Below are positions 2,065 to 57,519 of a stretch of 64,000 nucleotides of DNA, piece by piece. The translations under genes were made by a program, and so were the position numbers. The stretch is from positions 75,842-139,841 of the forward strand of contig JBHPMF010000002.1 in NCBI GenBank assembly GCA_042563375.1, read 5' to 3'. Positions within the stretch are counted from its first letter, which is position 1. Each line of letters starts with the position of its first letter. The stretch is from Elusimicrobiota bacterium (GTDB lineage: Bacteria; Elusimicrobiota; Elusimicrobia; JACQPE01). The notes under the pieces were generated by a model. That model made no database searches, had not been told where the DNA came from, and worked only from the letters and a program-made list of their open reading frames with translations.

Positions 2065-2163
2065 ATTTCCTTCTTCCTTTTAGCCCTCAGCCCTCCGCGA
2101 AGCAGTCCTATGGTATGCCCCATAGGGCAGCCCTCAGCCCTTATACATGCGGAGCATCTATCC

Positions 2164-2811: not shown

Positions 2812-2833
2812 TGAAGAATGTGACACCCCGCAT

Positions 2834-2882
2834 TTCCCCTCGCCCCTTGGGGGAGAGGGCAAGCGAAGCGCGGGTGAGGGGT
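2834..2882. repeat. Family A hairpin repeat (CCTCGCCCCTTGGGGGAGAGGG...GGGTGAGGGG) between the cyt-b and HdrD-like genes
   Basis: ttcccctcgccccttgggggagagggcaagcgaagcgcgggtgaggggt. Related copies at 7386, 19118, 19206, 23161, 25151, 25451, 27438, 40185 and 49008. Confidence 0.8.
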
Positions 2883-2964
2883 TTCCTTTTAAAAAATAAA
2901 GGCAATCAACGGGGCGCAAGTCTCCGCGCTACGACAAGAAAAGAGAAGGCTGAAAAAATTTAAT

Positions 2965-4299: not shown

Positions 4300-5354
4300 G
4301 CATAACACGGCGTAAATTCCTAGGCATCCTAGGAGCCGGCACCGCTACCGCGGCCCTGCCCGATATTACTCGCGCCATGCAGGAATTCAAAGGGTACGCG
4401 AACAGTCTGGGCGTGCTTCATGATACCACGCGCTGTGTAGGTTGCCGTTCATGCGAAGAAGCTTGCAATGAAGTAAATGCTCTCCCGGCACCCGAAGCTT
4501 CCTTTAAGGATGAAAAGATACTTGATGCGACACGCCGCACGAACTACAAAACTTTCACTGTTGTCAATAAATATAAAGTCCAAAAGAAAACAAAAAAAGG
4601 CGAAAAAAAGACCTTAACGATTTTTAGAAAACAGCAATGCAATCATTGCCTAGAGCCTGCATGCGCTTCAGCTTGCTTTGTGAGCGCGTTTAAGAAAACT
4701 CCACAGGGCTCTGTAAGTTATAACGAAGATGTGTGCGTGGGATGCAGATACTGCATGGTGGCTTGCCCATTTTACGTGCCAACATACTCATACAACAGCC
4801 CTTTTGACCCAAAGATCACCAAGTGCACAATGTGCCTCCCAAGGATCCTTGAAGGAAAACTCCCTGGATGCGTTGAAGCGTGCCCGGCTGAAGCGCTTAC
4901 ATTTGGCAAGCGTGATGACCTTCTAAAGATCGCGCGCACGCGCATAAAAGATCATCCGGACAGATATATAAACAAGATATACGGTGAGCATGATATGGGC
5001 GGCACAAGCTGGATGTATCTCTCAGGTGTGCCATTCGAAAAACTGGGCCTGCCCAACCTTGGCAAGACCCCGGCTCCGGACCTCACGCATGGCGCCCTCT
5101 CGGCCGTGCCTGTTGTGATCCCGTTATGGCTCACGTTCCTCACGGGCATGTATGCCATAAACAAAAACAAAGATAAGGAAAACAAACTGGACAAAGAAAA
5201 CTCTGTTGAAAGCGCAATGGCCAAAGTGCGCGAAGAGGAATCCAAAAAAGCCGCTGCAACAGCTGAAAGACTAAAGAAGGAAAAGGAAAAAGCAGTGGAA
5301 ACAGCCGTGAAAAAAGCTTTGAGCGAGCAAGGAAAAAATCAGGAAAAGAAATGA
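4296..5354 (+). CDS. Tat-exported 4x[4Fe-4S] ferredoxin subunit, DsrO/HmcB/PsrB-like, with a C-terminal TM anchor
   Basis: ORF track starts at 4176, but the twin-arginine signal MSITRRKFLGILGAGTATAALP begins at ATG 4296. Cys clusters: CVGCRSCEEAC, CNHCLEPACASAC, CVGCRYCMVACP, CTMC..CVEACP. TM helix VPVVIPLWLTFLTGMYAI followed by a K/E-rich tail. Confidence 0.85.
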   Translation: MSITRRKFLGILGAGTATAALPDITRAMQEFKGYANSLGVLHDTTRCVGCRSCEEACNEVNALPAPEASFKDEKILDATRRTNYKTFTVVNKYKVQKKTKKGEKKTLTIFRKQQCNHCLEPACASACFVSAFKKTPQGSVSYNEDVCVGCRYCMVACPFYVPTYSYNSPFDPKITKCTMCLPRILEGKLPGCVEACPAEALTFGKRDDLLKIARTRIKDHPDRYINKIYGEHDMGGTSWMYLSGVPFEKLGLPNLGKTPAPDLTHGALSAVPVVIPLWLTFLTGMYAINKNKDKENKLDKENSVESAMAKVREEESKKAAATAERLKKEKEKAVETAVKKALSEQGKNQEKK

Positions 5355-5381
5355 CCTCAGAACAATTAATGCCCACCCGTT

Positions 5382-5416
5382 CTGTCATCCTGAATTTAGT
5401 TCAGGATCTCAACAGG
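5382..5416. repeat. Family B solo hairpin (CTGTCATCCTGAATTTAGTTCAGGATCTCAA)
   Basis: Same sequence as the left end of the full elements at 18654-18763 and 57419-57519. Lies between the FeS and NrfD-like genes. Confidence 0.8.
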
Positions 5417-5439
5417 TCATTCCTTTTAGGATCCAATCT

Positions 5440-6660
5440 ATGACCGACTTAATAGACATAAAAGCCCTTATAGCCAGGATCAAGGAGATCATTGCATCTG
5501 AGATCGAATACTTAAAAACCGGAGTCATCTTCACCCCGTTCAACATCATTTCAGGCCTCATCGTACTCATGGGCATCTATCTTACGTTCTTAAGATTCAC
5601 CGGAGGCCTTGCTTCAGTCTCTAACCTTTCAGACAATACCCCTTGGGGTATCTGGATATCATTCGACCTGTACACAGGAGTCGCTTTAGCTGCCGGCGGA
5701 TATGTGACAAGCGCGGCTGTGTATATCTTCGGCATGAAAAAACACCATTCAGCTGTGCGCCCTGCCATACTCACAGGATTCTTGGGCTACGCGCTGGTCG
5801 TATTCGCCTTGCATTATGATGTTGGAAGACCATGGCGCCTGCCTTACCCCTTTATCATGAGCCGCGGAGTCACATCTGTGATGTTCGAGGTGGCAGCATG
5901 CGTTGCCATGTATCTTTCCGTGCTTTTCCTTGAATTCTCGCCCGCAGCCCTCGAGTGGCTCGGCATTAAAAAACTAAGGAGCCTGATACGCAAATTTACG
6001 ATAGCGCTTACGATCTTCGGTGTCGTGCTCTCAACGCTTCACCAGTCATCATTGGGAGCCATGCTTTTGATCGCTCCCGGAAAACTTCACCCCCTATGGT
6101 ATTCGCGCTTTGTGCCTGTATTTTTCTTTGTTTCAAGCATCGCAGCCGGGCTTTCCATGGTACTTTTCGAAGGACTGCTTTCTCATAGATATTTCAAGGT
6201 GGATGAGCATCATCACAAGCAATACGACAGCTTGACCATGACATTCGGCAAAGCTTCAGCCATGGTTCTTGCCGGATATTTCGCGATCAAGATGATAGGA
6301 GTGGCTGAAAGCAATCACTGGGGCCTGCTCTTAACGCCATACGGAGCCCTATTCCTTACTGAGATATTGGGATTCGTGCTTTTACCTTGTTTTCTCTTCA
6401 CGATCGGCTACAAAGAGAGAAATCTGGGACTTATAAGGATATCAGCTGTTATTACAGTACTTGGGATAATGTTCAACAGATTTAACATGACATTTTTCGC
6501 CTTCAACTGGCAACTGCCATGGAGCCAAAGATATATACCGCACTGGATGGAAATAGGCATATCAGTGTTCATAGTAACGGTCGGGATACTTGTGTATAGA
6601 TTTATAGTAAACAGGATGCCTATACTGCACGAGCATCCTGACTACAAGGAAGCCCATTAA
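5440..6660 (+). CDS. NrfD/PsrC-family integral membrane quinone-interacting subunit (DsrP/HmcC-like)
   Basis: 406 aa and highly hydrophobic, with about 10 predicted helices. Sits directly after the Tat FeS subunit, as in Psr/Nrf/Dsr/Hmc modules. Confidence 0.85.
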   Translation: MTDLIDIKALIARIKEIIASEIEYLKTGVIFTPFNIISGLIVLMGIYLTFLRFTGGLASVSNLSDNTPWGIWISFDLYTGVALAAGGYVTSAAVYIFGMKKHHSAVRPAILTGFLGYALVVFALHYDVGRPWRLPYPFIMSRGVTSVMFEVAACVAMYLSVLFLEFSPAALEWLGIKKLRSLIRKFTIALTIFGVVLSTLHQSSLGAMLLIAPGKLHPLWYSRFVPVFFFVSSIAAGLSMVLFEGLLSHRYFKVDEHHHKQYDSLTMTFGKASAMVLAGYFAIKMIGVAESNHWGLLLTPYGALFLTEILGFVLLPCFLFTIGYKERNLGLIRISAVITVLGIMFNRFNMTFFAFNWQLPWSQRYIPHWMEIGISVFIVTVGILVYRFIVNRMPILHEHPDYKEAH

Positions 6661-6661
6661 A

Positions 6662-6796
6662 ATGGAGCATAGCAGCATACATACTCTCCAGGAATTCTTA
6701 CTCCACACTGAAGCTGTGATGTATGTGGTTGCTGTTATGATATTGATCGGATTTATATGGTTCTATGGCGCACTAACAAGCAATGAAGAAAATTAA
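6662..6796 (+). CDS. Unlisted 44-aa single-TM peptide (HmcD-like position)
   Basis: Hand translation: MEHSSIHTLQEFLLHTEAVMYVVAVMILIGFIWFYGALTSNEEN*. ATG lies 1 nt after the NrfD-like stop (TAAaATG). AAGGA sits 11 nt upstream. The 3' end overlaps the cytochrome start by 14 nt. Below the 60-aa ORF-track cutoff. Confidence 0.5.
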   Translation: MEHSSIHTLQEFLLHTEAVMYVVAVMILIGFIWFYGALTSNEEN

Positions 6797-8423
6797 ACGA
6801 AACATCCTGATCTTTTTCCTTCTTATTTCTCTGAGCACCATATCCATCGCCAAAGTAAAAGAATACCTGGCAAACAACCGGGCCGGAGTCATCACAATAA
6901 ACGCTGCAGAGCAGTTCGGACCTCTTGAAAGACCGCCTGTCACATTTCTCCATGGCAAACATGTCAGCGAACTGGCAAAACAGAACAAGGATTGCAATGT
7001 CTGCCATTTAACGGACAGCGCCAATAACGAATACCGCTCGCTTAAATTCCTGCGCAACAAAGAAACAGGCAAACAAGAAATCATGGACCTCTACCACGCC
7101 AAATGTGTAGAGTGCCATAAGGAAAGATCGGATCAAGGACTTGAAGCAGGCCCCGCCACGACCAATGAGTGCGGCATATGCCACATACGCGAGCCTAAAG
7201 TCTCCGCGCTAAGACAGGATGTGGAACTGGATAAATCCCTGCACTACCGCCATGTCAAAGCGCATAAGGATAAATGCGATAAGTGCCATCATGAATATAA
7301 TGAGAAAAATAAAAAGATCTATTACGCCAAAGGCCAAGAACGCTCCTGCCGCGACTGCCATATAGAGGAGGACTCCCTATCTTCGCCTCGCCCCTTAAGC
7401 GAAGCTTCTTCTCTTTCCTCTCTCCCTTTGAGGGAGAGGGCTAGGGTGAGGGGTATCAAGAACTCCGAGATTTCCTCCATGCGCACAGCCTCCCACAAAC
7501 AATGCATATCCTGTCATAAAATCAATGCCTCAAAGAACAAAGACACAGGCCCCGTATCATGCGAAGGGTGTCACGACAGGAGCAAACAGCTTGCTTATAA
7601 AAAGATAAAGCGCGTACCACGGATTAAGCGCAACCAACCTGACATAGCGTTGGTATGCCCCATAGATTTAAAGAAAGGCAGAATGAAAACAGTACCCTTC
7701 AATCACAAAGTGCACGAACAAGCTAATGACACCTGCCGCGCATGCCATCACGAGAGTCTTAAGGCATGCAAAGATTGCCACACGGTCTTCGGAGATGACA
7801 AGGCGGAAGGCACGACCTTGGCCATGTCAATGCATGATATGGCGTCAAAACACAGCTGCGTAGGATGCCACAACAGCGAAAAGGTCAAGACGGATTGCGC
7901 GGGATGCCACAAGAACATGAAACAGGGCGGACTAAGCGATAAGAACTGCCAAACCTGCCACAGAGGCCCCATGCCAAAAACCGTTAAATCAAAGGGTAAG
8001 ATGTCAGCGCATTATCTGAAGATGCTTGCTAAAAGAAATTATTCAAAACTTTCCTGGAACAATACTGAAATTGAGAAAACTATAAAGATCAGCCAACTAA
8101 GTGAAAAATACGAACCAGCTATTTTCCCCCATCGCAAGATCATTGATCATCTGAGAAAAAAGATCAAGAAAAGCAACCTTGCCAAGACATTTCACGAAAA
8201 CGAGAACGCCATGTGCCTGGGCTGCCATCATAACAATCCCGCAGATGCCAAGCCAGCCAAATGCAGTCATTGTCACGGCAAACCATTTGACAGCAGGAAT
8301 CTTGATATCAGCATGCCGGGCTTAAAAGGCGCCTACCACCTCCAATGCATGGGCTGTCATACCAACATGGGATTAGAAAAACACAACGACTGCACGACCT
8401 GCCACAAAGAAAAGAAGAAATAG
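6783..8423 (+). CDS. hmcA: 16-heme periplasmic cytochrome c, HmcA-like high-molecular-weight cytochrome
   Basis: 546 aa with a signal peptide (ILIFFLLISLSTISIA). I counted 16 CxxCH motifs, from CNVCH and CVECH through CMGCH and CTTCH. Carries a 23-codon repeat-derived insert at 7386-7454. Confidence 0.9.
   Translation: MKKIKRNILIFFLLISLSTISIAKVKEYLANNRAGVITINAAEQFGPLERPPVTFLHGKHVSELAKQNKDCNVCHLTDSANNEYRSLKFLRNKETGKQEIMDLYHAKCVECHKERSDQGLEAGPATTNECGICHIREPKVSALRQDVELDKSLHYRHVKAHKDKCDKCHHEYNEKNKKIYYAKGQERSCRDCHIEEDSLSSPRPLSEASSLSSLPLRERARVRGIKNSEISSMRTASHKQCISCHKINASKNKDTGPVSCEGCHDRSKQLAYKKIKRVPRIKRNQPDIALVCPIDLKKGRMKTVPFNHKVHEQANDTCRACHHESLKACKDCHTVFGDDKAEGTTLAMSMHDMASKHSCVGCHNSEKVKTDCAGCHKNMKQGGLSDKNCQTCHRGPMPKTVKSKGKMSAHYLKMLAKRNYSKLSWNNTEIEKTIKISQLSEKYEPAIFPHRKIIDHLRKKIKKSNLAKTFHENENAMCLGCHHNNPADAKPAKCSHCHGKPFDSRNLDISMPGLKGAYHLQCMGCHTNMGLEKHNDCTTCHKEKKK
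7386..7454. repeat. Family A repeat copy inserted in frame inside the 16-heme cytochrome gene
   Basis: 69 bp: cctcgccccttaagcgaagcttcttctctttcctctctccctttgagggagagggctagggtgaggggt. Encodes PRPLSEASSLSSLPLRERARVRG between heme motifs 5 (CRDCH) and 6 (CISCH). Confidence 0.8.
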
Positions 8424-8527
8424 GCGCTATCCGCTAAACCGGCAAACAAAACCCTCTCTGTCATTGCGAGGCAATCTCAGGCGCACGAATAGCCAAAAAG
8501 GAAGGCAGGGTTAATTCAGGGTTATTC

Positions 8528-15834: not shown

Positions 15835-16235
15835 GTAAAGAAAAGCAGAAATGGGGTACAGACTTCCATATCCAAAGAGAAGCCAGTCCTTGAAAGACGC
15901 TTCGCCCGTAAAAGGTAAGCTCCCGCGCTACGAAAAATCTGCCATCTATAATTTCGCCCTTCTTCTGCCCTGCCCCCTCTTCTTTCTGCTCATTAAGTTT
16001 CCGCCGAGAAACTTGAAAAGAGCGGTATTCTCATTGAGATCCTGAATCAAGTCCAGGATGACAGATAAGATATGTGCACACCCTTTTGTGCCCAAGCGGT
16101 ATGCTCCGCAAGGTATAATTCAGCCCTTCTTTATTTAGCCCTTTATTCATACTGGTACTTTATTCCCGGAATTTATAGGATTTATGGGTACGGCAAGCCC
16201 TGGTTTCCACGGGCTTAGCCAATAGGAGCATTATC

Positions 16236-17574: not shown

Positions 17575-17782
17575 CTGTCATTGCGAGACGCTTTACCGCT
17601 CTTCTATATTAAGGAGAAGCGCCGCGGCAATCTCAAAAACACGGAAAGCTCATAATAGGCCCCTGCCTTGCGCATAACACTATAGCAAACACAACATCAT
17701 ATTCTTACGTATTATTTGGGTTTGAGATTGCCACGCCCCGCTTTCTTTATAAATATCAGGGACGCGGAACTCGCAATGACAG
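17575..17782. repeat. Two Family C repeats (GTCATTGCGAG...CAATCTC) in inverted orientation between convergent genes
   Basis: 17575-17637: ctgtcattgcgagacgc...gcggcaatctcaaa. 17721-17782: tttgagattgccacg...ctcgcaatgacag. Other copies at 8457-8480 and 23978-24017. Confidence 0.8.
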
Positions 17783-18653: not shown

Positions 18654-18763
18654 CTGTCATCCTGAATTTAGTTCAGGATCTCAATAAGAACATTCCTTAT
18701 TGATTTTTTCACGGAATAAAGCAGAAAACTTTATGAGATCCTGAATCAAGTTCAGGATGACAG
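18654..18763. repeat. Full-length Family B MITE-like element (110 bp) with ~35-bp terminal inverted repeats
   Basis: CTGTCATCCTGAATTTAGTTCAGGATCTCAATAAG ... CTTTATGAGATCCTGAATCAAGTTCAGGATGACAG. Second full copy at 57419-57519. Solo ends at 5382, 16036 and 57253. Confidence 0.75.
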
Positions 18764-19117: not shown

Positions 19118-19265
19118 TTCCCTCCCCCTTGAGGGGGGAGGCTAGGTGGGGGTGATAGAGCTTCTCCGCTTATATTTTGCCACTCATCCCCCATCATTTC
19201 ATTTTGGGTGAGGTGGGCTTCCTCTTAATCACCCTCACCCAACCTCTCCCCTCAAGGGAGAGGAG
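19118..19265. repeat. Two Family A repeats in opposite orientation downstream of aprA
   Basis: 19118-19169: ttccctcccccttgaggggggaggctaggtgggggtgatagagcttctccgc. 19206-19265 is the reverse-oriented copy (atcaccctcacccaacctctcccctcaagggagagg). Confidence 0.8.
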
Positions 19266-19309
19266 TAAAAACAACGAGCCCTCCGAACGCTTGCGCGCCC
19301 GGAGGGCTC
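19266..19309 (-). terminator. Probable intrinsic terminator of sat-aprBA
   Basis: 10-bp GC-rich stem GAGCCCTCCG (19276-19285) / CGGAGGGCTC (19300-19309). On the minus strand it is followed by GTTGTTTTTA. Lies 28 nt after the aprA stop. Confidence 0.55.
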
Positions 19310-19336: not shown

Positions 19337-21205
19337 TCAAAGAACAGAGAGAATTTCTCTCTTATCCATTTTCCATTCGTTCTTTTCGATATTGTAGGTG
19401 CAGTTTGCGAACACCTTCCAATCTTCCTTCATCTGAGGCTTGTCTGATCGGAGATAGTATCCCGGCCAGCGAGTCTCATCTCTGAACAACATGGTTCTCA
19501 TGTGGCTCTCAGCCTGCCATGATCTCTGGATATTCTCCCAGCAGCGCATAAGCTCGTGCAGGTTCTCTGCTGCAAGCTTCTCTGAGTCCTCTTTGAGGAC
19601 ATTAAGGAACTCAAGGCCCCTTGTAAGAAGCTTTTCATTGGTGGTGAAGCTTGTTGAAACTCCGCCTGCGTATTCATCCATGAGCTTTTGTAGCCTGAAC
19701 ATGTACTGCTTGGGACTGATGTAATTCGGGTTGACTGTGGGGTCGGTTGTTTCAGCCTTGTGCTTTTCATAGAGTTCCATAGGTCGCAAGATCCTCTCTT
19801 TAAGAGCTTCGATCTTTTTAGCGTCGACTTCCGGAAGGTCTTTGTTCTCAACCGCGAATTTACACATTGCTTTGCCGGCAATTCTTCCCTCAGCGTGTGA
19901 GCCGGAGGAGAATTTGTGGCTGGAAGCGCCCGTGGCATCGCCTGCCGCGAAAAGGCCTTTAACTGTGGTCATGTTTGTATAACCCCAGAAATAGCCCTTC
20001 GGAGCGATATCTTCAGGTCCGCTCACCCATGCGCCGGAGGCGCCGGAGTGTGAACCAATGAAGTAAGGCTCGCAAGCTGCGATCTCGGATGGCTTCTGCT
20101 CTGGCATTGTGTCTGTTGCTGCCCAAAGTATTGCTTGAGAGATCGTCATGTCAAGAAAGTCTTCCCATGCTTCACTCTCGAGCTCTTTGAGCTTTTTCTT
20201 TCTCTCTTTCTCGTCAGGGACCTGAGAAGAAAGGTTCTTAATGGCTTCTTCTGTTCTCATGTAGATGGGGCCTTTGCCGTCTTTTACATCTAGCATCATA
20301 AGCCAGTTTCTTAGGTTAGCCGGAACGGGCTTAACCATTCCATAAGGTTTCCATTTCTCAAGCTCTGGTCTGTTGGTTTGCATGTAATTCTCGCCGAGTC
20401 CGTTTGTTGCTTGGGACTTAAATAGCAAGAACCACGCTCCAACTGGTCCGTAAGCATCCTTGAAGCGCACCGGAATAAAGCGCACTTCCTGGCATGTCAT
20501 CTCAGCGCCGGCTCGGATCGTGAAATACGCGCTGGCTCCTGAGTTGAACGGTGGATACCATGAACGGCCGAGACCTTCGCCGCCTGATCGCGGTCTGAAG
20601 ATATGTACGGCTCCGCCCATGCAAGCGAGAACTGCTTTTGCCTTAAAGACATAGAATTTGTTCTCGCGGGTGCTAAATCCAACAGCACCTACGCATCGGC
20701 CTTTCTCCACGAGAGGCTCCACGATGAAGACTCTCTCATAGATATTCTCGGTGCCCAAAGCGTTCTTTGCCGCTTCAGCAACGATTACCTTGTATGACTC
20801 ACCGTTGATCATGAGCTGCCATCTGCCTTCATGCACATACTTTCCTTCTGCATCTTTCCAGATTGGCAATCCCCATTTCTCAAATAAGTGGACTGATGAA
20901 TCAACGTGCCTGGCGATGTTGGCCACGAGATCCTCACGGGTGATGCCCATAAGGTCGTTTCGCACGTAGTCAATGTAGTCTTTCAATGTGTTCTGGCCGT
21001 CTTTCAATCCAACGTATTGATTGATGGCTGAAAGGCCCATCGCAACAGCGCCGGAGCGCTCCATTGATGCCTTGTCAACCAGGGCGACCTTGAGTCCATG
21101 TTTCTTGGCCCAGTATGCAGTTTCAACGGCAGCGCCGCAAGCAGCCATACCACCGCCAAGAATCAGGATGTCGCTTTTTACTTCAACTGTTTCGAATTTT
21201 GGCAT
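19337..21205 (-). CDS. aprA: Adenylylsulfate (APS) reductase alpha subunit
   Basis: 622 aa. FAD-binding N-terminus DILILGGGMAACGAAVE. The sequence reads as characteristic AprA throughout. Immediately follows aprB. Confidence 0.95.
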   Translation of the reverse strand: MPKFETVEVKSDILILGGGMAACGAAVETAYWAKKHGLKVALVDKASMERSGAVAMGLSAINQYVGLKDGQNTLKDYIDYVRNDLMGITREDLVANIARHVDSSVHLFEKWGLPIWKDAEGKYVHEGRWQLMINGESYKVIVAEAAKNALGTENIYERVFIVEPLVEKGRCVGAVGFSTRENKFYVFKAKAVLACMGGAVHIFRPRSGGEGLGRSWYPPFNSGASAYFTIRAGAEMTCQEVRFIPVRFKDAYGPVGAWFLLFKSQATNGLGENYMQTNRPELEKWKPYGMVKPVPANLRNWLMMLDVKDGKGPIYMRTEEAIKNLSSQVPDEKERKKKLKELESEAWEDFLDMTISQAILWAATDTMPEQKPSEIAACEPYFIGSHSGASGAWVSGPEDIAPKGYFWGYTNMTTVKGLFAAGDATGASSHKFSSGSHAEGRIAGKAMCKFAVENKDLPEVDAKKIEALKERILRPMELYEKHKAETTDPTVNPNYISPKQYMFRLQKLMDEYAGGVSTSFTTNEKLLTRGLEFLNVLKEDSEKLAAENLHELMRCWENIQRSWQAESHMRTMLFRDETRWPGYYLRSDKPQMKEDWKVFANCTYNIEKNEWKMDKREILSVL

Positions 21206-21226
21206 GTTATATGTTCTCCTTGGTTG

Positions 21227-21682
21227 TTACTTTACGCCTGCCGTTTGCTTTACCTGCGCCAGATCTTTCATACCGTTTGATTCGGGCTCAGTATAGAGCA
21301 ATTGGCTGTTGAGATCGTCCGTCGATTTAAAACCACCGTCTGGTACTGCAGAACCTTCCGGAGTCGTTCTGATCGGGAACTTGAATCTCTTCAGTGTTCC
21401 GCCGCGGAATTTTACTGTCCACATAATGGAATCAGAGCTGCGAAGCGGCGTAACGCTTGCGCCCATAGGAACAAAGTCAGCGTATCCGCGAACTTCGATT
21501 GCCTGTACGGGGCAGATCTTAACGCAGCACATACATTCCCAGCACATGGCCGGGTCTCTATTGAACGCCTTCATGGACTCTTTGTTAAGAGCCATAAGGT
21601 CGTTGGGGCAAATGTGTTGACAAGCTGTCTTGTCGAGTGCTTTACACCCGTCACATTTGCTGGTGATCACGTAACTTGGCAT
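21227..21682 (-). CDS. aprB: Adenylylsulfate reductase beta subunit (2x[4Fe-4S])
   Basis: 151 aa. MPSYVITSKCDGCKALDKTACQHICPNDLM and CWECMCCVKICP. Confidence 0.95.
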   Translation of the reverse strand: MPSYVITSKCDGCKALDKTACQHICPNDLMALNKESMKAFNRDPAMCWECMCCVKICPVQAIEVRGYADFVPMGASVTPLRSSDSIMWTVKFRGGTLKRFKFPIRTTPEGSAVPDGGFKSTDDLNSQLLYTEPESNGMKDLAQVKQTAGVK

Positions 21683-21759
21683 ATATGCCCTCCTTAGTTA
21701 GTTTTTATCTTGCAAGCTAGCTTTTGCAAGTTCTCCCAGTTTAAATCCTGGAAATTTTC

Positions 21760-22983
21760 TTATTTTTTCTGAGTAGCTGTACCGGTCGCATGACCGTGCA
21801 GCTTGATCTCGACTTTCTCGGTGAGAGTTGCGTAATACTTACGCAGGATCTCAAGAACTTCAGGTCGGCTGAATTCCTTGGGAACATCGCCGCCTTCTGA
21901 AAGCGCTTTTCTAAGAGCAGTGCCGCTCAAAAACAGCCTTTCCTCTTTTTTATGCGGGCAAGTCTTCATTGAAGCCATGCCTCCGCATGTATAGCACCAG
22001 AATGTCCAGTCGATCGGCAGCATCTTGCACTTGAGCGCTCCGTCCCAGAGCTTGTGATATGACTCTTGGGCATCGAATGGTCCATAGTAGTTTCCGACTC
22101 CTGCATGGTCGCGCCCGATGATCATATGGGAGCAGCCGAAATTCTGTCGGAAAAGTCCGTGCAGCAATCCTTCGCGAGGACCTGCGTAGCGCATATCAAG
22201 AGGATATCCGCCGACAGCCACTCTGTTCTTATCGAAGTAATGATCAACAAGGGTGTTGATGCAGTCGACTCGAACATCAGCGGGAATGTCTCCGGGTTTA
22301 AGATTGCCTACGAGCTGGTGGATATAGATCCCGTCGCTTACTTCTGTTGCGATTTTCGCGAGGTATTCATGTGAGCGGTGCATAGGGTTGCGCAGCTGCA
22401 ATGCAGCGATCGTCTTCCAGCCTTTTTCTTCAAATATCTTTCGGCTCTCAGACGGCCTCTGATAAAGACCTTTGAACTTCGTCGGGAAATAGCTCTCTGA
22501 CAAGACTTGCACAGTGCCGGCGATGTTGAATTCCTTCTGTCCCATCACCATCTTCACTCCGGGATGTTCCATATCGTTTGTTGTAAAGACATTCTTGCAC
22601 TCGAATTCCTTGTCGATCTTGTATGACTCGGTAACCTTGAGGATAGCCATGGTCTCGTTTGTTTCATCTGAAACAAGAGCCACTTCTGTTCCTGCGGGAA
22701 TCTTCTCGTCATGCGACATGGTGATCGGTATCGGCCAGAAAGTGCCGTTCTTCATTTTCATGTCCTGGCAAACGCCTTTCCAGTCTTCTTGACCCATAAA
22801 GCCGTCAAGAGGAGTGAATCCTCCGATTCCAAGCATAATAAGGTCGCCTGTTTCGCGGGAAGTTACAACGATTTTCTTTAACTTCTCAGCTTTTTTAAGA
22901 CCCTCTTCTTTCTCTTTTCCTTCAAGAAGCAGAACCTTTAACTTATCACTACCGTGAGGTGAGATCAGTGTGTTTTTAGACAT
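21760..22983 (-). CDS. sat: Sulfate adenylyltransferase (ATP sulfurylase)
   Basis: 407 aa. [11 protein letters not shown] and GRDHAGVG motifs. First gene of sat-aprB-aprA. Confidence 0.95.
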
Positions 22984-23160: not shown

Positions 23161-23220
23161 TCCCCTCTTTCCCCTCTCCCTTGAGGGGAGAGGGCAGGGT
23201 GAGGGTGATAAAGCTTCTCC
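23161..23220. repeat. Family A repeat in the sat / hypF divergent intergenic region
   Basis: tcccctctttcccctctcccttgaggggagagggcagggtgagggtgataaagcttctcc. Confidence 0.8.
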
Positions 23221-23329: not shown

Positions 23330-25873
23330 ATGCTCAAACGCCAGAAAATGACCATAAAAGGCAGGGTCCAGGGAGTAGGCTTCAGGCCCACTGCCTACCG
23401 CTATGCCCTGGAACTGGGCCTCGCAGGCAGCGTCTCAAATACCCATGACGGCGTTGTCGTAGACCTGCAGGGGCCCGTCAATAAGCTTGCTTCATTTGAA
23501 ACGCTACTAAAGGAAAAAGCGCCTCCCGGAGCCGCTATTAAGAGTATAGAGAAAAGGATCCTTGCTCCGTCTGAAAAACTTTATGGATTCTCGATATTAA
23601 AGAGCTCAAAAAACCAGCCGTCAAAAACACTTTTTCCGCCTGATCTGGGCCTGTGCGAGGCATGCTCCAAAGACATAAACAACCCGCACGATCGCCGCTA
23701 TAAATACCCGTTCACAAACTGCACGGATTGCGGCCCAAGATTCACGATCATTGAGAACCTGCCTTATGACCGCCCAAAAACAACCATGAAAGGATTCCAC
23801 ATGTGCTCTGATTGCCTGCGCGAATACAATGACCCCCTGAACAGAAGATTCCACGCCCAACCCAATGCATGCCCAAAATGCGGACCAATTGCAGAATTTA
23901 AGCCACTAAGGGAAAGAAAAAATAAAAGTTCTTTGCGCTATCCATTCTGTAACAATAATGGAAATAACACTGCCTCACTGTCATTGCGAGGAGCGGCAGC
24001 GACGAAGCAATCTCAAACAGGAATAAACGCTATTAAAAAAGCAGCTCAACTTATTGGTCAAGGCAAGGTTCTGGCCATCCAATCCCTCGGCGGATTCCAT
24101 CTGGCATGCGATGCTTATTCAGATAAGGCAGTCAAGAGACTGCGCGCTTTAAAGAACCGGCCACATAAGCCATTCGCCGTCATGTTGACCGGAGTACATA
24201 CCGCTCAAAAACATTGCGAAATAACGAGCCGGGAAGCATCAGCTCTTGAATCGCCCAGGGCGCCTGTTATCATGCTTGAAAAACACCATGGCTCAGGTCT
24301 CTCAAAACTCATTTCCCCGGGCTTAAATACCATGGGCATTATGCTTACTTATACCCCCCTGCATTCAATTCTTTTTAAGGAATTGAAAAGCTGTACGGAC
24401 GCTCTCGTCATGACCTCGGGCAATATCTCCGACGAGCCCATATGTAGGACGCCTGAACAAGCTTTAAGAAAATTAAACGGGATCGCTGACGCGTTTTTGA
24501 CCCATAACAGGCCTATCAGGAACCGCTGTGATGATTCTGTTGTATACATTCATCAGGATAAATGTATCCCCATCCGCCGAGCAAGAGGCTATGTGCCTGA
24601 CCCTGTGGAGATGAGAACCGCCTCTGCTACTCCCATCCTAGCCTGCGGAGCAGAACTCAAAACCACATTCTGCTTAACTCGAGACAACGAAGCATTCCCG
24701 TCAACCCACATCGGCGGCATGAAAGACCAAAAAACCACTGATTTTTACGAAGAAGCGCTGGGGCGGATGAGCAAATTTCTCGAAATAAAACCCGCGATCA
24801 TCGCTCATGATACGCATCTTGATTATCTGACAACGCGCATCGCAAAACAGCAAGCTAAAAAACTCAAACTTCCTGCCTCGCGCTTGATTCCCGTGCAGCA
24901 CCATCACGCTCACATCGCAAGCGTCATGGCAGAGCATAAGCTTGATAGAAAAGTTTTAGGCATAGCTCTTGACGGAACAGGCCTTGGCACGGATGGAACC
25001 ATCTGGGGAGGAGAATTCCTGGAAGTAAATGGAGCGGATTTTCGCAGAGTGGCCCATCTAAAGCCTGTCAGAATTCCCGGAGGCGATATCGCAGCAACCG
25101 AGATCTGGAGATGCGCCCTCCCATGGATCGAAAAAATCCATCTCTCTTCTTTCCCCTCTCCCTTGAGGGTCGGAGATGCTCCGAAGCCTTGGCGAAGGAG
25201 TGGAGAGGGCAGGGTGAGGGTGAATAAAGAAGCTCCGCTAAACATTACCAAAAACCTATTCAAAGACATCGACCCTAAAAAAATAGAATTCGCCTGGAAA
25301 ATGATGCAAAAAGGAATAAATTCCCCTCTGACTTCCAGCATGGGCCGCCTCTTCGACGCAGTCGCTGCCCTGATCAACGTACGCCACGAAACAACTTATG
25401 AGGCCCAAGCAGCCATGGAACTCGAAAGTCTCCTAATCCCTGTTTCTTCTTTTCCTCCCCCTGGATGGGGGAGGCTAGGCGGGGGTGGCAAAGCCTCACC
25501 TTCTTACACTTTCAAATATTCCCCCTCCCCCCATCTCCCCATAATAATCGACCCAACCCCAGCAATATCCTCCATCCTGACTGACCTAAAGTCAAAAAGA
25601 CCATCAAAGGAAATATCCTTAAAATTTCATGTCTGTGTCGCCAATATGATCGCGGAAATCTCAAAAACCCTGTGCAACCAACTTAAGATCAGAACAGTCG
25701 CCTTATCCGGCGGAGTATTTCAAAACAAAACACTTCTGAACCTGGCCATCCCGAAACTCAAACAAAAAGGATTAAAAACATTCACAAACACGCAAGTCCC
25801 CGCCAATGACGCGGGGATCTCCCTCGGCCAGGCATGGATCGCTATGCAGAAAATGCTAAATGCCAAGGGCTAA
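23330..25873 (+). CDS. hypF: [NiFe]-hydrogenase maturation carbamoyltransferase HypF
   Basis: 847 aa. Acylphosphatase domain (GRVQGVGFRP). Two Zn-finger pairs (CEACSKD..CTDCGPRF; CSDCLREY..CPKCGP). YrdC-like GGFHLACDA and a Kae1-like C-terminal domain. Contains three repeat-derived in-frame inserts. Confidence 0.95.
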   Translation: MLKRQKMTIKGRVQGVGFRPTAYRYALELGLAGSVSNTHDGVVVDLQGPVNKLASFETLLKEKAPPGAAIKSIEKRILAPSEKLYGFSILKSSKNQPSKTLFPPDLGLCEACSKDINNPHDRRYKYPFTNCTDCGPRFTIIENLPYDRPKTTMKGFHMCSDCLREYNDPLNRRFHAQPNACPKCGPIAEFKPLRERKNKSSLRYPFCNNNGNNTASLSLRGAAATKQSQTGINAIKKAAQLIGQGKVLAIQSLGGFHLACDAYSDKAVKRLRALKNRPHKPFAVMLTGVHTAQKHCEITSREASALESPRAPVIMLEKHHGSGLSKLISPGLNTMGIMLTYTPLHSILFKELKSCTDALVMTSGNISDEPICRTPEQALRKLNGIADAFLTHNRPIRNRCDDSVVYIHQDKCIPIRRARGYVPDPVEMRTASATPILACGAELKTTFCLTRDNEAFPSTHIGGMKDQKTTDFYEEALGRMSKFLEIKPAIIAHDTHLDYLTTRIAKQQAKKLKLPASRLIPVQHHHAHIASVMAEHKLDRKVLGIALDGTGLGTDGTIWGGEFLEVNGADFRRVAHLKPVRIPGGDIAATEIWRCALPWIEKIHLSSFPSPLRVGDAPKPWRRSGEGRVRVNKEAPLNITKNLFKDIDPKKIEFAWKMMQKGINSPLTSSMGRLFDAVAALINVRHETTYEAQAAMELESLLIPVSSFPPPGWGRLGGGGKASPSYTFKYSPSPHLPIIIDPTPAISSILTDLKSKRPSKEISLKFHVCVANMIAEISKTLCNQLKIRTVALSGGVFQNKTLLNLAIPKLKQKGLKTFTNTQVPANDAGISLGQAWIAMQKMLNAKG
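23978..24017. repeat. Family C repeat inside hypF (in frame)
   Basis: ctgtcattgcgaggagcggcagcgacgaagcaatctcaaa encodes ...SLSLRGAAATKQSQ..., in the linker between the second Zn finger and the YrdC-like domain. Confidence 0.8.
25151..25238. repeat. Family A long-variant repeat inside hypF (in frame)
   Basis: ttcccctctcccttgagggtcggagatgctccgaagccttggcgaaggagtggagagggcagggtgagggtgaataaagaagctccgc. Roughly 85-90 % identical by eye to 27438-27526. Encodes FPSPLRVGDAPKPWRRSGEGRVRVNKEAP. Confidence 0.8.
25451..25500. repeat. Family A repeat inside hypF (in frame)
   Basis: tttcctccccctggatgggggaggctaggcgggggtggcaaagcctcacc encodes FPPPGWGRLGGGGKASP. Confidence 0.75.
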
Positions 25874-25961: not shown

Positions 25962-26183
25962 ATGTGCCTAGCTATTCCCGGCAAGATCATTTCAAAAAAA
26001 GGCCCGCTCGCCAGAGTGGATTTTAACGGAATAACCAAAAATACCCGCCTGGACCTTCTGCCAAAAGCAAAAACCGGGGATTATGTGATCGTGCATGTTG
26101 GATACGCGATTCAGGCTTTGGACCAAAAAGAAGCGAAAAAAACCATGAAAGACCTCCGGAAGTACGGGATTATCAAAATATGA
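25962..26183 (+). CDS. hypC: Hydrogenase maturation chaperone HypC
   Basis: 73 aa with the N-terminal MCLAIPGKI signature. Confidence 0.9.
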   Translation: MCLAIPGKIISKKGPLARVDFNGITKNTRLDLLPKAKTGDYVIVHVGYAIQALDQKEAKKTMKDLRKYGIIKI

Positions 26184-26203
26184 AACTTTCGCATTTTATC
26201 TCC

Positions 26204-26285
26204 GGTAGTCGCACCCTTTATGGGTGCGTTTGCTTTACGTTTAGTATGAGCAAAAAAGAACGCGCCCATAAAGGGCGCGACTACC
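26204..26285. repeat. Family F palindromic element (GGTAGTCGCACCCTTTATGGGTGCGTT ... AACGCGCCCATAAAGGGCGCGACTACC)
   Basis: 82-bp element with ~27-bp inverted ends between hypC and hypD. Half copies at 14619-14640 and 59172-59198. Confidence 0.75.
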
Positions 26286-26346
26286 CGAACCGAATCGATT
26301 TTCACGATTCGACGATAAGCACAGCTCAGGGTAATCACTAGAAACA

Positions 26347-27537
26347 ATGAAAAACCAACAAGTTGCTCAATCCATTCTGCCTGAAATCAAAAAACTTACC
26401 AAACAGATCACGAAAAAGACCATGAAAGCTCGGATAAACCTCATGGAAGTATGCGGAACGCACACAATGGCGATCGCAGCCAGCGGTATCCGCTCGCTTT
26501 TGCCCAAAGAAATAAACATGCTCTCAGGACCGGGTTGCCCGGTATGCGTAACATCAACAGGCGAGATCGACATGGCTATAGATCTTGCGGATCAGCATAA
26601 CGCCATTATTGCCACATTCGGGGATATGATGAAAGTAAGAGGAAGTACCGGTTCACTCCAGGACGCAAAAGCTGATGGCCATGACATTAGGATCATATAT
26701 TCCCCCTTTGAGCTTGTTGGACTTGCGCGCGCGAATCCAAACAAAAACGTGATATTCATAGGCGTTGGTTTTGAAACCACCATCCCCGCGATCGCCAGCG
26801 CAATAAAACAAGCCAGGGCGAATGGGATCAAGAATCTTTTTGTGTTGCCGATCTTTAAGCTTGTCCCCCCTGCTCTCAAGGCCATACTTTCCGGCACTGA
26901 CCATAATATCCACGGCTTCATCCTGCCTGGGCATGTGAGCGCCATAATCGGAGCTAAGCCTTATGAATTCGTAGTGAAAGACCATGAAGTGCCCTGCGTT
27001 ATAACCGGCTTCGAGCCGATGGACATCCTGCAGGGGATCCTGATGGTCCTCAAACAGCTTATCCGCCAAAAACCAAGGCTTGAGATCGAGTATTCACGCT
27101 GCGTTAAGCCGAACGGCAATCCCGTGGCGATAAACACGATGAATGAGGTCTTTCAGGAAGCAGATGCCAGATGGAGGGCGATCAGCACCATACCGCGTTC
27201 GGGCTTAAGTTTCAGAAAACCATTCATAGGATTTGACGCACTCAAACGATTTAACATCAGATATAAGGAAACGCCGGAACCCAAGGGATGCTTATGCGGA
27301 GCTATCCTCACAGGCAAAGCAAAACCTAAACAATGCAAGCACTTTGGAAAATCATGCACTCCGACAAAAGCCATTGGCCCGTGTATGGTATCTTCTGAGG
27401 GAGCCTGCGCAGCGGAATATAGATATGGCCCCCCTTTTTCCCCTCTCCCCTTGAGGTCACAGATGCTCCGAAGCCTTGGCGAAGGAGTGGAGATGGTTAG
27501 GGTGAGGGGCATAAAGAAAGCATCGCTAAGCAAATGA
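26347..27537 (+). CDS. hypD: Hydrogenase maturation Fe-S protein HypD, with a repeat-derived C-terminal extension
   Basis: 396 aa. CGTHT, GPGCPVCV, GFETT and the C-terminal PCMVSSEGACAAEYRYG. After that the ORF continues about 35 codons through a Family A repeat to TGA 27535-27537. Confidence 0.95.
   Translation: MKNQQVAQSILPEIKKLTKQITKKTMKARINLMEVCGTHTMAIAASGIRSLLPKEINMLSGPGCPVCVTSTGEIDMAIDLADQHNAIIATFGDMMKVRGSTGSLQDAKADGHDIRIIYSPFELVGLARANPNKNVIFIGVGFETTIPAIASAIKQARANGIKNLFVLPIFKLVPPALKAILSGTDHNIHGFILPGHVSAIIGAKPYEFVVKDHEVPCVITGFEPMDILQGILMVLKQLIRQKPRLEIEYSRCVKPNGNPVAINTMNEVFQEADARWRAISTIPRSGLSFRKPFIGFDALKRFNIRYKETPEPKGCLCGAILTGKAKPKQCKHFGKSCTPTKAIGPCMVSSEGACAAEYRYGPPFSPLPLRSQMLRSLGEGVEMVRVRGIKKASLSK
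27438..27526. repeat. Family A long-variant repeat forming the 3' end of hypD
   Basis: ttcccctctccccttgaggtcacagatgctccgaagccttggcgaaggagtggagatggttagggtgaggggcataaagaaagcatcgc. Encodes ...FSPLPLRSQMLRSLGEGVEMVRVRGIKKAS. Confidence 0.8.
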
Positions 27538-28397
27538 TCACAGAAATTCACTTCCTATTAACATACACATGCATAATGGAATGCGATCATTGTTTCCTGC
27601 ATTGCGGTCCGTATGCTAAAGGAACATTCACGGTAAAACAAATAGAGCGCGTCATTAAGGAAGCTTCCAGAATAAAAACACTTGAATGGATATATTTTGA
27701 AGGCGGCGAAGCATTCCTGTTTTACCCGACATTACTTGAAGGCATCAGGCTCGCCAGGAAAAAAGGCTTTAAAGTCGGGATAGTAAGCAATTGCTATTGG
27801 GCCACATCGAAAAGCGATGCCCGGATATGGCTCAAACCGCTTAAAAAGCTCGGTATTTCGGATCTCAGCATCAGTGAAGATGATTTTCATCTGGATGATA
27901 AAAAAGACAAGCGAACCAAAAATGCCATGCTGGCAGCAAAAAAACTGGGCATACCCACGGGTGTTATCTGTGTTGAAGGACCGAAACGCAAGAATTCAGG
28001 AGCTGCCCTGTTAAGAGGCAGAGCCGCGGACAAGCTTGTTAAAGGCCTGGCAAAAAGCAAATGCAGTAAATTCACGCAATGCCTAGACGAAGAGATACGC
28101 GATCCCAAACGCGTTCATATTGACCCATATGGCCATGTTCAGATCTGCCAGGGCATATCAATAGGAAACATGTGGAAAAAGCCGCTGTCATCCATCCTTG
28201 AAAATTATGATTGGCGTTCTCATGCGATCTGCTCGAAATTAGCAAAAGGCGGACCAGCGCTGCTGGCGAGAAAATACCACGTAAAACCTGAGGCAAAATT
28301 CGCAAGCGCTTGCCATGCCTGCTATGCTACTCGAAAATCATTGATCAAAAAATTCCCAAAATATTTAGCGCCTAAACAAGTTTATGGGATCAAATAG
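27534..28397 (+). CDS. Radical SAM protein of unknown function, embedded between hypD and hypE
   Basis: 287 aa. N-terminal CxxxCxxC (YTCIMECDHCF). Further C-terminal Cys (ICQG, CSKL, CHAC). ATGA overlap with the hypD stop and a 14-nt overlap with the hypE start. Confidence 0.8.
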   Translation: MITEIHFLLTYTCIMECDHCFLHCGPYAKGTFTVKQIERVIKEASRIKTLEWIYFEGGEAFLFYPTLLEGIRLARKKGFKVGIVSNCYWATSKSDARIWLKPLKKLGISDLSISEDDFHLDDKKDKRTKNAMLAAKKLGIPTGVICVEGPKRKNSGAALLRGRAADKLVKGLAKSKCSKFTQCLDEEIRDPKRVHIDPYGHVQICQGISIGNMWKKPLSSILENYDWRSHAICSKLAKGGPALLARKYHVKPEAKFASACHACYATRKSLIKKFPKYLAPKQVYGIK

Positions 28398-29394
28398 CAA
28401 CCAAAAAATCCTCCTCTCCCACGGCTCCGGCGGAAGACTCACCCATGCCCTTATAAAAGACGTATTCCTTAAAGAACTTGGGGCAAACCAGCACAATTGT
28501 CTTGATGATGCGGCTGAGATCGCGATAAAAGCAGGCAAAAAACTCGCTTTCACCACAGATTCCTACGTGGTAAAACCCCTTTTCTTCCCGGGCGGAGATA
28601 TCGGCCGCTTAGCAGTATGCGGAACAGTAAATGACCTGGCAATGAAAGGAGCTCAACCAATGGCTATGTCAGCTTCTTTTATCATCGAGGAGGGGTTCAG
28701 GATGGAGGCACTGCGCAGGATCATTTCTTCAATGAAGCGCGCTTGCAAAGAAGCGGATTGCAGGATAGTAACAGGCGATACAAAAGTCGTGGAAAAAGGC
28801 GCAGCTGACAAGCTTTTTATAACAACATCAGGAATAGGAGTCATTCCGAATGGAGTCGATATTTCAGGCAAGAATGCCAGAACAGGGGATGTGATCCTGA
28901 TCAATGGCCCCATAGCTCAGCATGGAACAGCTGTTTTGAACGCAAGGGAGGATCTTGGCTTCTCAGGAAACCTCAGAAGTGATGTCAGACCATTGAACAA
29001 GTCAGTCGGGTCAATGTTACGCGCGACAAAAAATATACATGTCTTGCGCGACCTTACAAGAGGAGGGCTTGCAACTGCTTTAAATGAGATATCGCAAGCT
29101 TCAGGCTTGGGCATATTGATAAACGAAATATCAGTGCCGATTGACAAAGCAGCCAGGGCAGTTTGCAGCCTGCTAGGCCTTGACCCTCTTTATGTGGCAA
29201 ATGAAGGTAAATTCATCGCCATAATGCCAAAAAAACACGCGAATAAACTCATTAAAACGCGCTTAAAAGGGACAGGCTTCAAATTAATAGGAGAACTTCA
29301 ATTAAATCCCAAATCCGTACGGATAAAAACCTCAATTGGCGGAGAACGCATTTTATTGATGATGGAAGGCGAACAATTGCCCAGGATCTGCTAA
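28384..29394 (+). CDS. hypE: Hydrogenase maturation protein HypE (carbamoyl dehydratase)
   Basis: 336 aa. LLSHGSGG, AIR-synthase-like fold motifs, and the C-terminal PRIC. Confidence 0.95.
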   Translation: MGSNSNQKILLSHGSGGRLTHALIKDVFLKELGANQHNCLDDAAEIAIKAGKKLAFTTDSYVVKPLFFPGGDIGRLAVCGTVNDLAMKGAQPMAMSASFIIEEGFRMEALRRIISSMKRACKEADCRIVTGDTKVVEKGAADKLFITTSGIGVIPNGVDISGKNARTGDVILINGPIAQHGTAVLNAREDLGFSGNLRSDVRPLNKSVGSMLRATKNIHVLRDLTRGGLATALNEISQASGLGILINEISVPIDKAARAVCSLLGLDPLYVANEGKFIAIMPKKHANKLIKTRLKGTGFKLIGELQLNPKSVRIKTSIGGERILLMMEGEQLPRIC

Positions 29395-30831: not shown

Positions 30832-30851
30832 GTCTTCATATCCTTTGTTCT

Positions 30852-30948
30852 TCGTAGCGCGGCAGCTTGTATGCCGCTCTTTATTCCCCCACTCTACCCC
30901 GCTCGAGGGGAACAAGTGGAAGGCGGGATACAAACTCCCGCACTACGA
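30852..30948. repeat. Family E palindromic element (TCGTAGCGCGGCAGCTTGTATGCCGC ... GCGGGATACAAACTCCCGCACTACGA) between hemC and hemL
   Basis: 97 bp. Its outer ~26-bp arms are inverted repeats. Close relative at 33741-33846 and a perfect short form at 40239-40307. Confidence 0.8.
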
Positions 30949-33740: not shown

Positions 33741-33846
33741 TGTAGCGCGGCAGCTTGTATGCCGCTCTTCATTCCCCCACTCTAACCCCCCCCTCAAGCG
33801 GGCAGGGAAACAAATGGAAAGCGGGATACAAGCTCCCGCGCTACGA
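33741..33846. repeat. Family E palindromic element between moaA and the MOSC gene
   Basis: tgtagcgcggcagcttgtatgccgctcttcattcccccactcta...gcgggatacaagctcccgcgctacga. The first ~50 bp are nearly identical to 30852-30948. Confidence 0.8.
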
Positions 33847-33853
33847 AAAATGG

Positions 33854-40238: not shown

Positions 40239-40307
40239 TCGTAGCGCGGGGGCTTGTACCCCGCTTCTGTAAAAAGCAGAAGCGGGGTACAAGCCCCCGC
40301 GCTACGA
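40239..40307. repeat. Family E perfect palindrome (31-bp arms, 7-nt loop)
   Basis: TCGTAGCGCGGGGGCTTGTACCCCGCTTCTG taaaaag CAGAAGCGGGGTACAAGCCCCCGCGCTACGA. I checked every base pair. Lies between the ALDH and EEP genes, directly after a Family A copy (40185-40231). Confidence 0.9.
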
Positions 40308-57418: not shown

Positions 57419-57519
57419 TGTCATCCTGAATTTATTTCAGGATCTCAATAAGCCAGTTCCATTTTGGGAAATTTAGACGGAAAACTTTATGAGATCCTGA
57501 ATCAAGTTCAGGATGACAG
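57419..57519. repeat. Second full-length Family B MITE-like element
   Basis: TGTCATCCTGAATTTATTTCAGGATCTCAATAAG ... CTTTATGAGATCCTGAATCAAGTTCAGGATGACAG. A solo left-end hairpin lies at 57253-57278. Confidence 0.75.

Follow-up and report, generated by a model that had tools for sequence, protein, structure and literature searches.

The palindromic elements of Rickettsia (RPEs) are found between genes and also, in frame, within unrelated housekeeping genes, and the peptides that they encode are predicted to be compatible with the fold of the host protein (Ogata et al. 2000, 2002, as reported in PMC10969869 and PMC3733652). Repetitive extragenic palindromes (REPs) and REPINs are mobilized by RAYT tyrosine (HUH) transposases (PMC3733652, PMC8049555), and in two species of Xanthomonas different REPs lie at approximately the same site of recB (Di Nocera et al.; PMC3733652, PMC8049555). 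The BRE repeats of Bordetella, the ERIC and RU-3 repeats of enterobacteria, and the BOX and RUP repeats of pneumococcus contain open frames that are fused to genes either internally or at their 3' side (PMC3184786). Here, we analyze one 64-kb stretch of DNA, hereafter the window, from a metagenome-assembled genome (MAG) of an uncultured Elusimicrobiota bacterium. In this window hypF, the gene for the carbamoyltransferase HypF, contains three hairpin repeats: a family C element in the linker between the zinc-finger and YrdC-like domains (site 1), and a long and a short form of family A (A-long and A-short) in two loops of the Kae1-like C-terminal subdomain (sites 2 and 3).

Our preferred reading, to which we assign a probability of roughly 80%, is that three REP/REPIN-like, non-autonomous hairpins landed in hypF and that the copies that survived selection were free of stop codons, had a length divisible by three, and lay in permissive loops. 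By analogy, the inserts appear to behave like RPEs and intragenic REPs, and in-frame palindromic repeats as such are already known; what goes beyond the known cases is the sharing of termini across phyla, the nesting of one element in another, and the use of the same three loops in other HypF proteins. The likeness to RPEs, which consists of in-frame insertion and a modeled surface peptide, is a functional resemblance only. RPEs are approximately 100-150 bp long and restricted to Rickettsia, whereas the hypF elements measure 38-86 nt, have an Elusimicrobiota host, and belong to families that occur across many phyla; unlike RPEs, they are nested, and three of them occupy a single gene. The hypF elements are not RPEs, from which their size and host set them apart. 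With REPs and REPINs they share imperfect hairpins of 20-40 nt, short unpaired tags at the foot of the stem, inverted doublets, and a location that is mostly extragenic and occasionally intragenic. BRE, ERIC, RU-3, BOX, and RUP repeats are lineage-restricted and approximately 100-300 bp long, some of them with terminal inverted repeats, whereas hairpins of the hypF type are shorter and pan-phylum. As for the criteria that define miniature inverted-repeat transposable elements, namely a size of 70-300 bp, terminal inverted repeats, and a target-site duplication, there are doublets of 100-206 bp with inverted ends, and the three hypF inserts are single units. In the searchable open-access literature the element sequences and their typical peptides were undescribed, the matches being chance ones to primers and telomeres.

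Three repeat-derived insertions in HypF

Three segments of the window HypF are repeat-derived insertions, in loops whose length varies across HypF proteins. The original prediction, made from the DNA of this stretch, held that three intergenic-type repeats lie inside hypF without breaking the frame and that they are tolerated as loops. All three match intergenic repeats of the window, and alignment and structure together place them at the positions where this HypF exceeds its homologues. At 847 amino acids the protein had also been called longer than is typical; the 120 best homologues listed span 743-900 amino acids and mostly fall at approximately 750-800. Of the coordinates, those of A-short (25451-25500) stand, whereas family C now covers 23978-24015 (previously to 24017) and A-long 25146-25231 (previously 25151-25238).

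Apart from the inserts, the protein is that expected of a HypF. The open reading frame (ORF) is complete and intact, and its product matches the Pfam models Acylphosphatase, zf-HYPF (twice), Sua5_yciO_yrdC, HypF_C, and HypF_C_2, all above the curated cut-offs and in the order of HypF. The NCBI record of the identical protein ("carbamoyltransferase HypF [Elusimicrobiota bacterium]") starts at Met7 and counts 841 amino acids; in a search of a protein collection the nearest other HypF homologues are only 47-48% identical, and the closest solved structure is 3vth (E = 1.2e-180). We aligned the query with 114 homologues, and all columns that are invariant over these 115 sequences are retained in the window HypF, including C109, C112, C131, C134, C159, C162, C181, C184, H524, H528, D548, and D827. 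The eight zinc-finger cysteines and the histidine and aspartate (metal/nucleotide) positions of the Kae1-like domain are intact. An AlphaFold2 model based on the 115-sequence alignment has a mean predicted local distance difference test (pLDDT) score of 86.9 and a predicted template modeling (pTM) score of 0.89. In a Foldseek comparison, the model aligns with 3vth_A at a template modeling (TM) score of 0.93; over the solved HypF proteins, which have the same four-domain architecture, the scores are 0.93 (3VTH/3VTI), 0.91 (4G9I, T. kodakarensis), and 0.91 (3TSP, E. coli), all normalized to the target. The names given by the depositors to 3VTH and 3VTI are full-length HypF and the HypE-HypF complex.

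From its sequence and its model, we consider the window HypF to be otherwise canonical and probably functional. That hypF might be a decaying pseudogene whose frame is still open would fit the presence of three insertions and the result of Pfam scans, in which no [NiFe]-hydrogenase structural gene was found in the 64-kb window. We regard this as exceedingly improbable given 847 codons without a stop, the retention of every invariant column, the confidently predicted fold, and the intact hypC, hypD, and hypE alongside; because these three genes follow it in an operon, hypF is not pseudogene-like.

The excess over other HypF proteins is pronounced at each site. The query has 49 amino acids at site 1, 51 at site 2, and 28 at site 3, against medians of 18, 22.5, and 15.5 in the 114 homologues, and its residues 193-208, 213-227, 616-634, and 709-722 run almost without counterpart in these sequences. 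Relative to its nearest relatives (P0002 and P0003), it has an excess of approximately 28 codons at site 2 and 16 at site 3, in agreement with element lengths of 86 and 50 nt. Relative to 3VTH, there are approximately 35 extra residues between 3VTH positions 195 and 204 and approximately 33 between 559 and 564, as well as a 17-residue chain gap within residues 564-647. In the model, pLDDT drops below 50 only at residues 149-151, 201-224, 608-628, and 707-721. The inserts are the only long stretches of low confidence in an otherwise confident prediction, and each is placed between regular secondary-structure elements, so that the model agrees with the view that they are tolerated as loops. At the DNA level, no terminator-like site was found on the sense strand at any of the three inserts.

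The family C copy in hypF has the sequence CTGTCATTGCGAGGAGCGGCAGCGACGAAGCAATCTCA, as originally described. No near-identical copy occurs in the window at up to three mismatches; with the other window copies (17576-17634 on the plus strand, 17724-17781 on the minus strand, and a minimal copy at 8458-8480) it shares only the termini CTGTCATTGCGAG...GCAATCTCA, which comprise a 13-nt 5' end and a 9-nt 3' end. By our own arithmetic, 22 fixed bases with a gap of 0-50 have a chance expectation of approximately 4e-7 per 64 kb. A sister family, D1, with the form CTGTC-ATCCTGAA...TTCAGGAT-CTCA, has seven further copies in the window, and from these sequences we define families C and D1 as one hairpin class, whose feet, CTGTC and CTCA(A), are constant. 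The window has 11 such tagged hairpins, and all but the hypF copy, ten in number, lie between ORFs. Hairpins with constant feet, CTGTC-AT(stem)...(stem)AT-CTCA(A), are seen at 5383-5410, 16036-16063, 17576-17781, 18655-18762, 57419-57518, and 62989-63067, and their stems are interchangeable (ATTGCGAG/GCAAT, ATCCTGAA/TTCAGGAT, and ATTCTGAG/GAAT).

The linker that contains this element, after the second zinc finger, had been thought long by comparison with that of E. coli HypF. It is longer than in all 114 aligned HypF proteins, not just that of E. coli, but the repeat accounts for only approximately 13 of the approximately 32 extra residues. The remainder corresponds to 23906-23977, the 5' two-thirds of the over-long linker (LRERKNKSSLRYPFCNNNGNN), which is AT-rich and has no match in the homologues; no repeat match in the window was found that would explain this segment as a second repeat.

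A-long has a composite structure. The repeat search pairs it with 27437-27518, in the tail of hypD, at 80% identity over 82 nt, and blastn aligns it with 27437-27493 at 93% identity over 58 columns (E = 2e-14). Both of its arms (22 + 22 nt) are 100% identical to the intergenic copy at 23166-23208, and subtraction of that copy from A-long identifies a 33-nt module that is nested in a family A hairpin, after the loop of the latter. The module is also present in the second A-long copy, at 27457-27489, and both A-long copies of the window are in hyp genes, 2.2 kb apart. The identity of the arms of the hypF A-long with the copy upstream of hypF may reflect local copying or gene conversion rather than transposition over a long range. 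An exact 32-mer of the A-long junction had no match in metagenomes, where just the 22-nt core of the module is widespread, with matches on at least 120 contigs; at one metagenome locus (L170) the core CTCCGAAGCCTTGGCGAAGGAG lies within a family C element. Hairpins nest within hairpins.

The repeat search matches A-short to intergenic 19118-19167 at 82% identity over 50 nt, and blastn does so at 91% over 34 nt (E = 1.7e-7). The family A copy upstream of hypF (23164-23220) forms a hairpin of -28.2 kcal/mol (z = -2.3). The majority of family A copies in the window are extragenic, as judged from repeat-search families, which we used in place of a regular-expression census that was too strict. Five inverted pairs are present in the window (17576/17781, 18655/18762, 57419/57518, 19121/19263, and 26201/26288). 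An Rfam scan of the window returned one tRNA-Leu only; the window repeats thus belong to no curated RNA family. A canonical GTAG-tagged REP family (TCGTAGCGCGGGGGCTTGTACCCCGC...) occurs at 40239-40307, 30848-30885, 33813-33850, and 2910-2939, with one doublet that has perfect 31-nt arms, and coexists with the families that lack this tag.

The window comes from a MAG, and short repeats are abundant in it; we therefore considered whether repeat sequence had been stitched into hypF during assembly. A mis-join, however, would not restore the HypF sequence and its frame on both sides, three times over. Differences of 7-20% separate the intragenic copies from all others in the window, a read is much longer than any of the elements, and the same phenomenon is seen in independent assemblies from other projects. 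We therefore judge an assembly artefact to be very unlikely.

Table 1. Features of the window: the hypF insertions, related repeats, and genes of the hyp operon
Feature	Position	Strand	Remarks
hypF, carbamoyltransferase HypF	23330..25873	+	complete ORF, 847 aa, intact
Insert 1, family C tagged hairpin CTGTC-ATTGC...GCAAT-CTCA, translated LSLRGAAATKQSQ (aa 217-229)	23978..24015	+	linker between zinc-finger and YrdC-like domains
Remaining part of the over-long linker at site 1, aa 193-216, LRERKNKSSLRYPFCNNNGNNTAS	23906..23977	+	low homologue occupancy at aa 193-208
Insert 2, composite A-long, translated FPSPLRVGDAPKPWRRSGEGRVRVNKE (aa 608-634)	25146..25231	+	between helices 592-605 and 634-643; family D8
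Nested 33-nt module, core CTCCGAAGCCTTGGCGAAGGAG	25170..25202	+	A-long minus intergenic 23166-23208; directly after the TTGA loop of the family A hairpin
Insert 3, A-short (family A short form), translated FPPPGWGRLGGGGKAS (aa 708-724)	25451..25500	+	between helix 693-700 and strand 738-741; family D6
Second A-long copy, last 35 aa of the hypD ORF	27433..27518	+	family D8; past the HypD domain
Family A reference copy, intergenic, approximately 110-165 nt 5' of the hypF start codon	23164..23220	+	repeat search, blastn
Family A inverted doublet, REPIN-like, intergenic; closest relative of insert 3	19118..19268	.	inverted pair I7, family D6
Family A copy, in frame in the multihaem cytochrome (hmcA-like) ORF 6783-8423	7410..7462	+	families D3, D4, D17; Pfam Cytochrom_CIII
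Family C inverted doublet with long interiors, intergenic	17576..17781	.	termini match
Minimal family C copy, CTGTCATTGCGAG directly followed by GCAATCTCA, interior-free	8458..8480	+	termini match
hypC, 73 aa, starts MCLAIPGK...	25962..26183	+	operon
hypD	26347..27537	+	396 aa; Pfam HypD match ends at aa 361
hypE	28384..29394	+	AIRS and AIRS_C domains

Reading frame and mode of insertion

Purifying selection on random insertions predicts all of the data on frame and location. In six-frame translation the short form of family C has no stop in any sense frame and is open in one of the three antisense frames; of the six frames of the canonical family A copy, five are open. Since a majority of frames in these elements lack a stop, no frame-aware insertion step is needed. 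By our reading of the sequences, intergenic 19118-19167 has, in the frame used in hypF, a TGA at the loop where A-short has GGA, and the A-long copies of hypF and hypD are read in different frames through their middle, with single-base indels that restore the register. ORFs cover 84% of the window, yet the majority of copies lie between them. In other genomes, and among the matches listed, 14 of the 123 family C copies are in long ORFs, as against 62% of control positions, and this depletion from coding DNA is the outcome expected of selection. Copies of family C within ORFs elsewhere comprise nine in sense and five in antisense orientation, near the 3:1 ratio of open frames, and their core lengths fall into all three residue classes modulo 3.

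A dedicated mechanism by which the elements enter genes in frame, or between codons, would also explain why all intragenic copies in the window preserve the frame, why the nested module is 33 nt long, a multiple of three, and why the interiors of coding copies in a Chloroflexota-like clade vary in steps of three nucleotides. Such lengths are, however, a matter of survivorship, since insertions that break the frame of an essential gene would never be seen. The spread of in-ORF family C cores over all residue classes, the different frames in the middles of the hypF and hypD A-long copies, and the mostly intergenic location of the copies are further points against such a mechanism, and we attach very little probability to it. 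Where the original prediction allowed for either a systematic in-frame insertion or a selection process, it is selection that the open frames favor, and no sign of a mechanism for in-frame insertion was found.

The parallels that had been drawn with two other genes of the window fared differently. In the hmcA-like ORF, a family A copy does lie in frame, at 7410-7462. The hypD ORF likewise includes an A-long copy, but as a C-terminal extension of 35 amino acids and not as an internal loop: because the ORF runs through A-long, the repeat now serves HypD as its C-terminal tail and also makes up the junction to the following gene. This tail is of the 3'-extension type known from BRE/ERIC/RUP-like repeats.

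If the three inserts are mobile hairpins sieved by selection, as we prefer to think, then the hairpin families scattered in intergenic DNA would have supplied the copies that were later fixed in hypF. These may have moved as single-stranded hairpins by means of an HUH/Y1 transposase acting in trans, as REPs do with RAYTs, or alternatively by local copying between nearby hairpins. Purifying selection would remove the insertions that break the enzyme and so leave the in-frame state without any frame-aware step, and the copies that remain would be translated as disordered surface loops that add approximately 13, 27, and 17 residues.

Several observations weigh against this account. The feet CTGTC...CTCA(A) of families C and D1 are not the GTAG/CGTC of REPs and REPINs, and family A has a G-rich 3' tail in place of a tag and likewise no GTAG/CGTC. 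Pfam scans of 51 window ORFs revealed neither a transposase nor a RAYT. The three inserts fold no better than shuffled sequence (z = -0.4 to -1.5), and given this result we left hairpin stability out of the evidence for the inserts. In the protein collection, the best relative of this HypF is 48% identical and no empty-site allele was found, with insertion boundaries resolved to a few codons. Lastly, three of the four intragenic family A copies (those of the hmcA-like ORF, the hypF A-long, and hypD) share a frame, and all four are oriented as their gene, which is slightly more uniform than chance alone would give, although a sample of n = 4 is no proof.

The same loops and hairpins in other genomes

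Hairpin-type peptides (VIA...KQSQ, VIAR...DEAIS, CHCE.../CHSE..., and PLP...GGG) are found in the same three loops of other HypF proteins, in approximately 25 of the 114 homologues at site 2, approximately 25 at site 3, and four at site 1. Independent events are fewer than these counts because many of the carriers belong to one clade, with 84-89% identity. We checked three separate assemblies at the DNA level. In a member of Chloroflexota (L002), hypF contains the family C elements GCTGTCATTGCGAGCGAAGCGAAGCAATCTCAA at site 2 and GTCATTGCGAGGGAAGTCGACGAAGCAATC at site 3, and a further family C copy is intergenic on the same contig, 8 kb off. In the second (L243), a complete inverted doublet of a sister variant (CTGTCATTCTGAG...GAATCTCA) lies in frame at site 2, with intergenic copies on the same contig. 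In the third (L244), site 1 contains the 5' end of family C and, directly after it, a family A hairpin (CCCTCTCCCTTGAAGGGAGAGGG), and site 3 contains tagged hairpins. Different elements thus occupy the same loop in different lineages, which argues for several independent colonizations of the only permissive sites. Distant orthologues that shared the inserts but lacked the DNA repeats would have told against a repeat origin; distant HypF proteins do have inserts in these loops, but the inserts are different elements, which are themselves repeats in the genomes concerned.

In the HypF clade with 84-89% identity (among homologues P0025-P0117, sites 2 and 3), the termini of the hairpins are fixed and the interiors vary by whole codons, with the variants VIAS-E-AKQSQ, VIATLNGVEGKQSQ, and VIASDLPAKAWQAGAKQSQ at site 2 and VIAREVDEAIS and VIARPVPGEARELDEAIS at site 3. 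This variation suggests that turnover of the hairpin loop is continuing inside the coding region of that clade.

Conservation of termini while interiors change is also what might be seen if the inserts had been exapted, either as mRNA hairpins that pause translation or stabilize the transcript at domain boundaries or as loops that alter interactions, for example with HypE. The position of site 1 exactly at a domain boundary and the filling of the same loops in several lineages would be in keeping with such a role. We nevertheless consider exaptation unlikely. Most HypF proteins have no insert at these sites, unrelated elements are found in the same loop in different lineages, the inserts are modeled as disordered, and the stability of the hairpins is not above that of shuffled sequence; recurrence at the same sites is equally expected if these are the only permissive loops.

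Beyond HypF, the pattern CTGTCATTGCGAG-N(4-34)-GCAATCTCA was found at 120 loci or more (L003-L122) in species-representative genomes from more than 15 phyla, including Patescibacteria, Chloroflexota, Bacteroidota, Nitrospirota, Desulfobacterota, Planctomycetota, Bacillota, Gemmatimonadota, and Omnitrophota. Cultured isolates are among the matches (Chryseobacterium, Winogradskyella, and Desulfotruncus). By our own arithmetic approximately two matches would be expected by chance (596 Gb x 2 strands x 31 gap lengths / 4^22). No conserved flanks outside the family C termini were found in 116 copies, and the interiors vary widely. For 50 of the 123 family C copies in other genomes, an inverted partner core lies no more than 300 nt away.

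We speculate, with considerable doubt, that families C, D1, and A and the nested GAAGCC...GGCGAAGG module could constitute one undescribed pan-bacterial system of tagged hairpins. Such a system would be marked by the feet CTGTC-AT...AT-CTCA, the same across more than 15 phyla, by preferential insertion of its members in each other's loops, by repeated seeding of new peptide loops at the same permissive sites of conserved enzymes, HypF among them, and by turnover of interiors in multiples of three nucleotides.

Genomic setting and wider meaning

The ORFs that follow hypF are, in order, hypC, hypD, a radical-SAM ORF, and hypE, and the stop codon of hypD overlaps the ATG of the next ORF (ATGA, 27534-27537). 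Between hypC and hypD, an inverted doublet of another repeat family lies at 26201-26288, with arms composed of GGTAGTCGCACCCTTTATGGGTGCG and its complement; this family is also found at 14615 and 59172. The doublet at 26201-26288 is terminator-like on both strands and may act as an attenuator inside the operon. Elsewhere in the window, a 6-phosphogluconolactonase ORF (59284-60087, minus strand) has a Pfam match of 255 residues against a profile of 225 positions, and repeats are located just outside it, at 59172-59280; this ORF may hold the insertion in pgl that the original prediction mentioned. The segments 2110-8423 and 19337-22983 read as a dissimilatory sulfate-reduction island, which includes a sulfate adenylyltransferase-like ORF, an AprB-type protein, an AprA-like FAD protein, and a membrane complex of the Hmc/Dsr type composed of an NrfD-like protein, CCG/Fer4 proteins, and a 546-aa multihaem cytochrome.

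Palindromic repeats that are read in frame tend to be described as something peculiar to Rickettsia and a small number of other lineages. The hypF inserts point to the same process, three times over, in one essential maturation enzyme of a free-living, uncultured, sulfate-reducer-like member of Elusimicrobiota, and hairpins of the same families mark these three loops in HypF proteins of unrelated phyla. The inserts provide a natural map of insertion tolerance in HypF that is useful for engineering or tagging, and they serve as a warning for annotation, given that the peptides VIA...KQSQ, CHSE..., and PLP...GEG in proteins are repeat-derived. They also draw attention to a very widespread hairpin family, to its mobilization, and to its conservation across phyla. 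If the hairpins were to form one pan-bacterial system, this would imply either a very widely shared mobilizing enzyme or frequent horizontal spread, and hairpins of this kind would be a general and traceable source of loop innovation in bacterial proteins.

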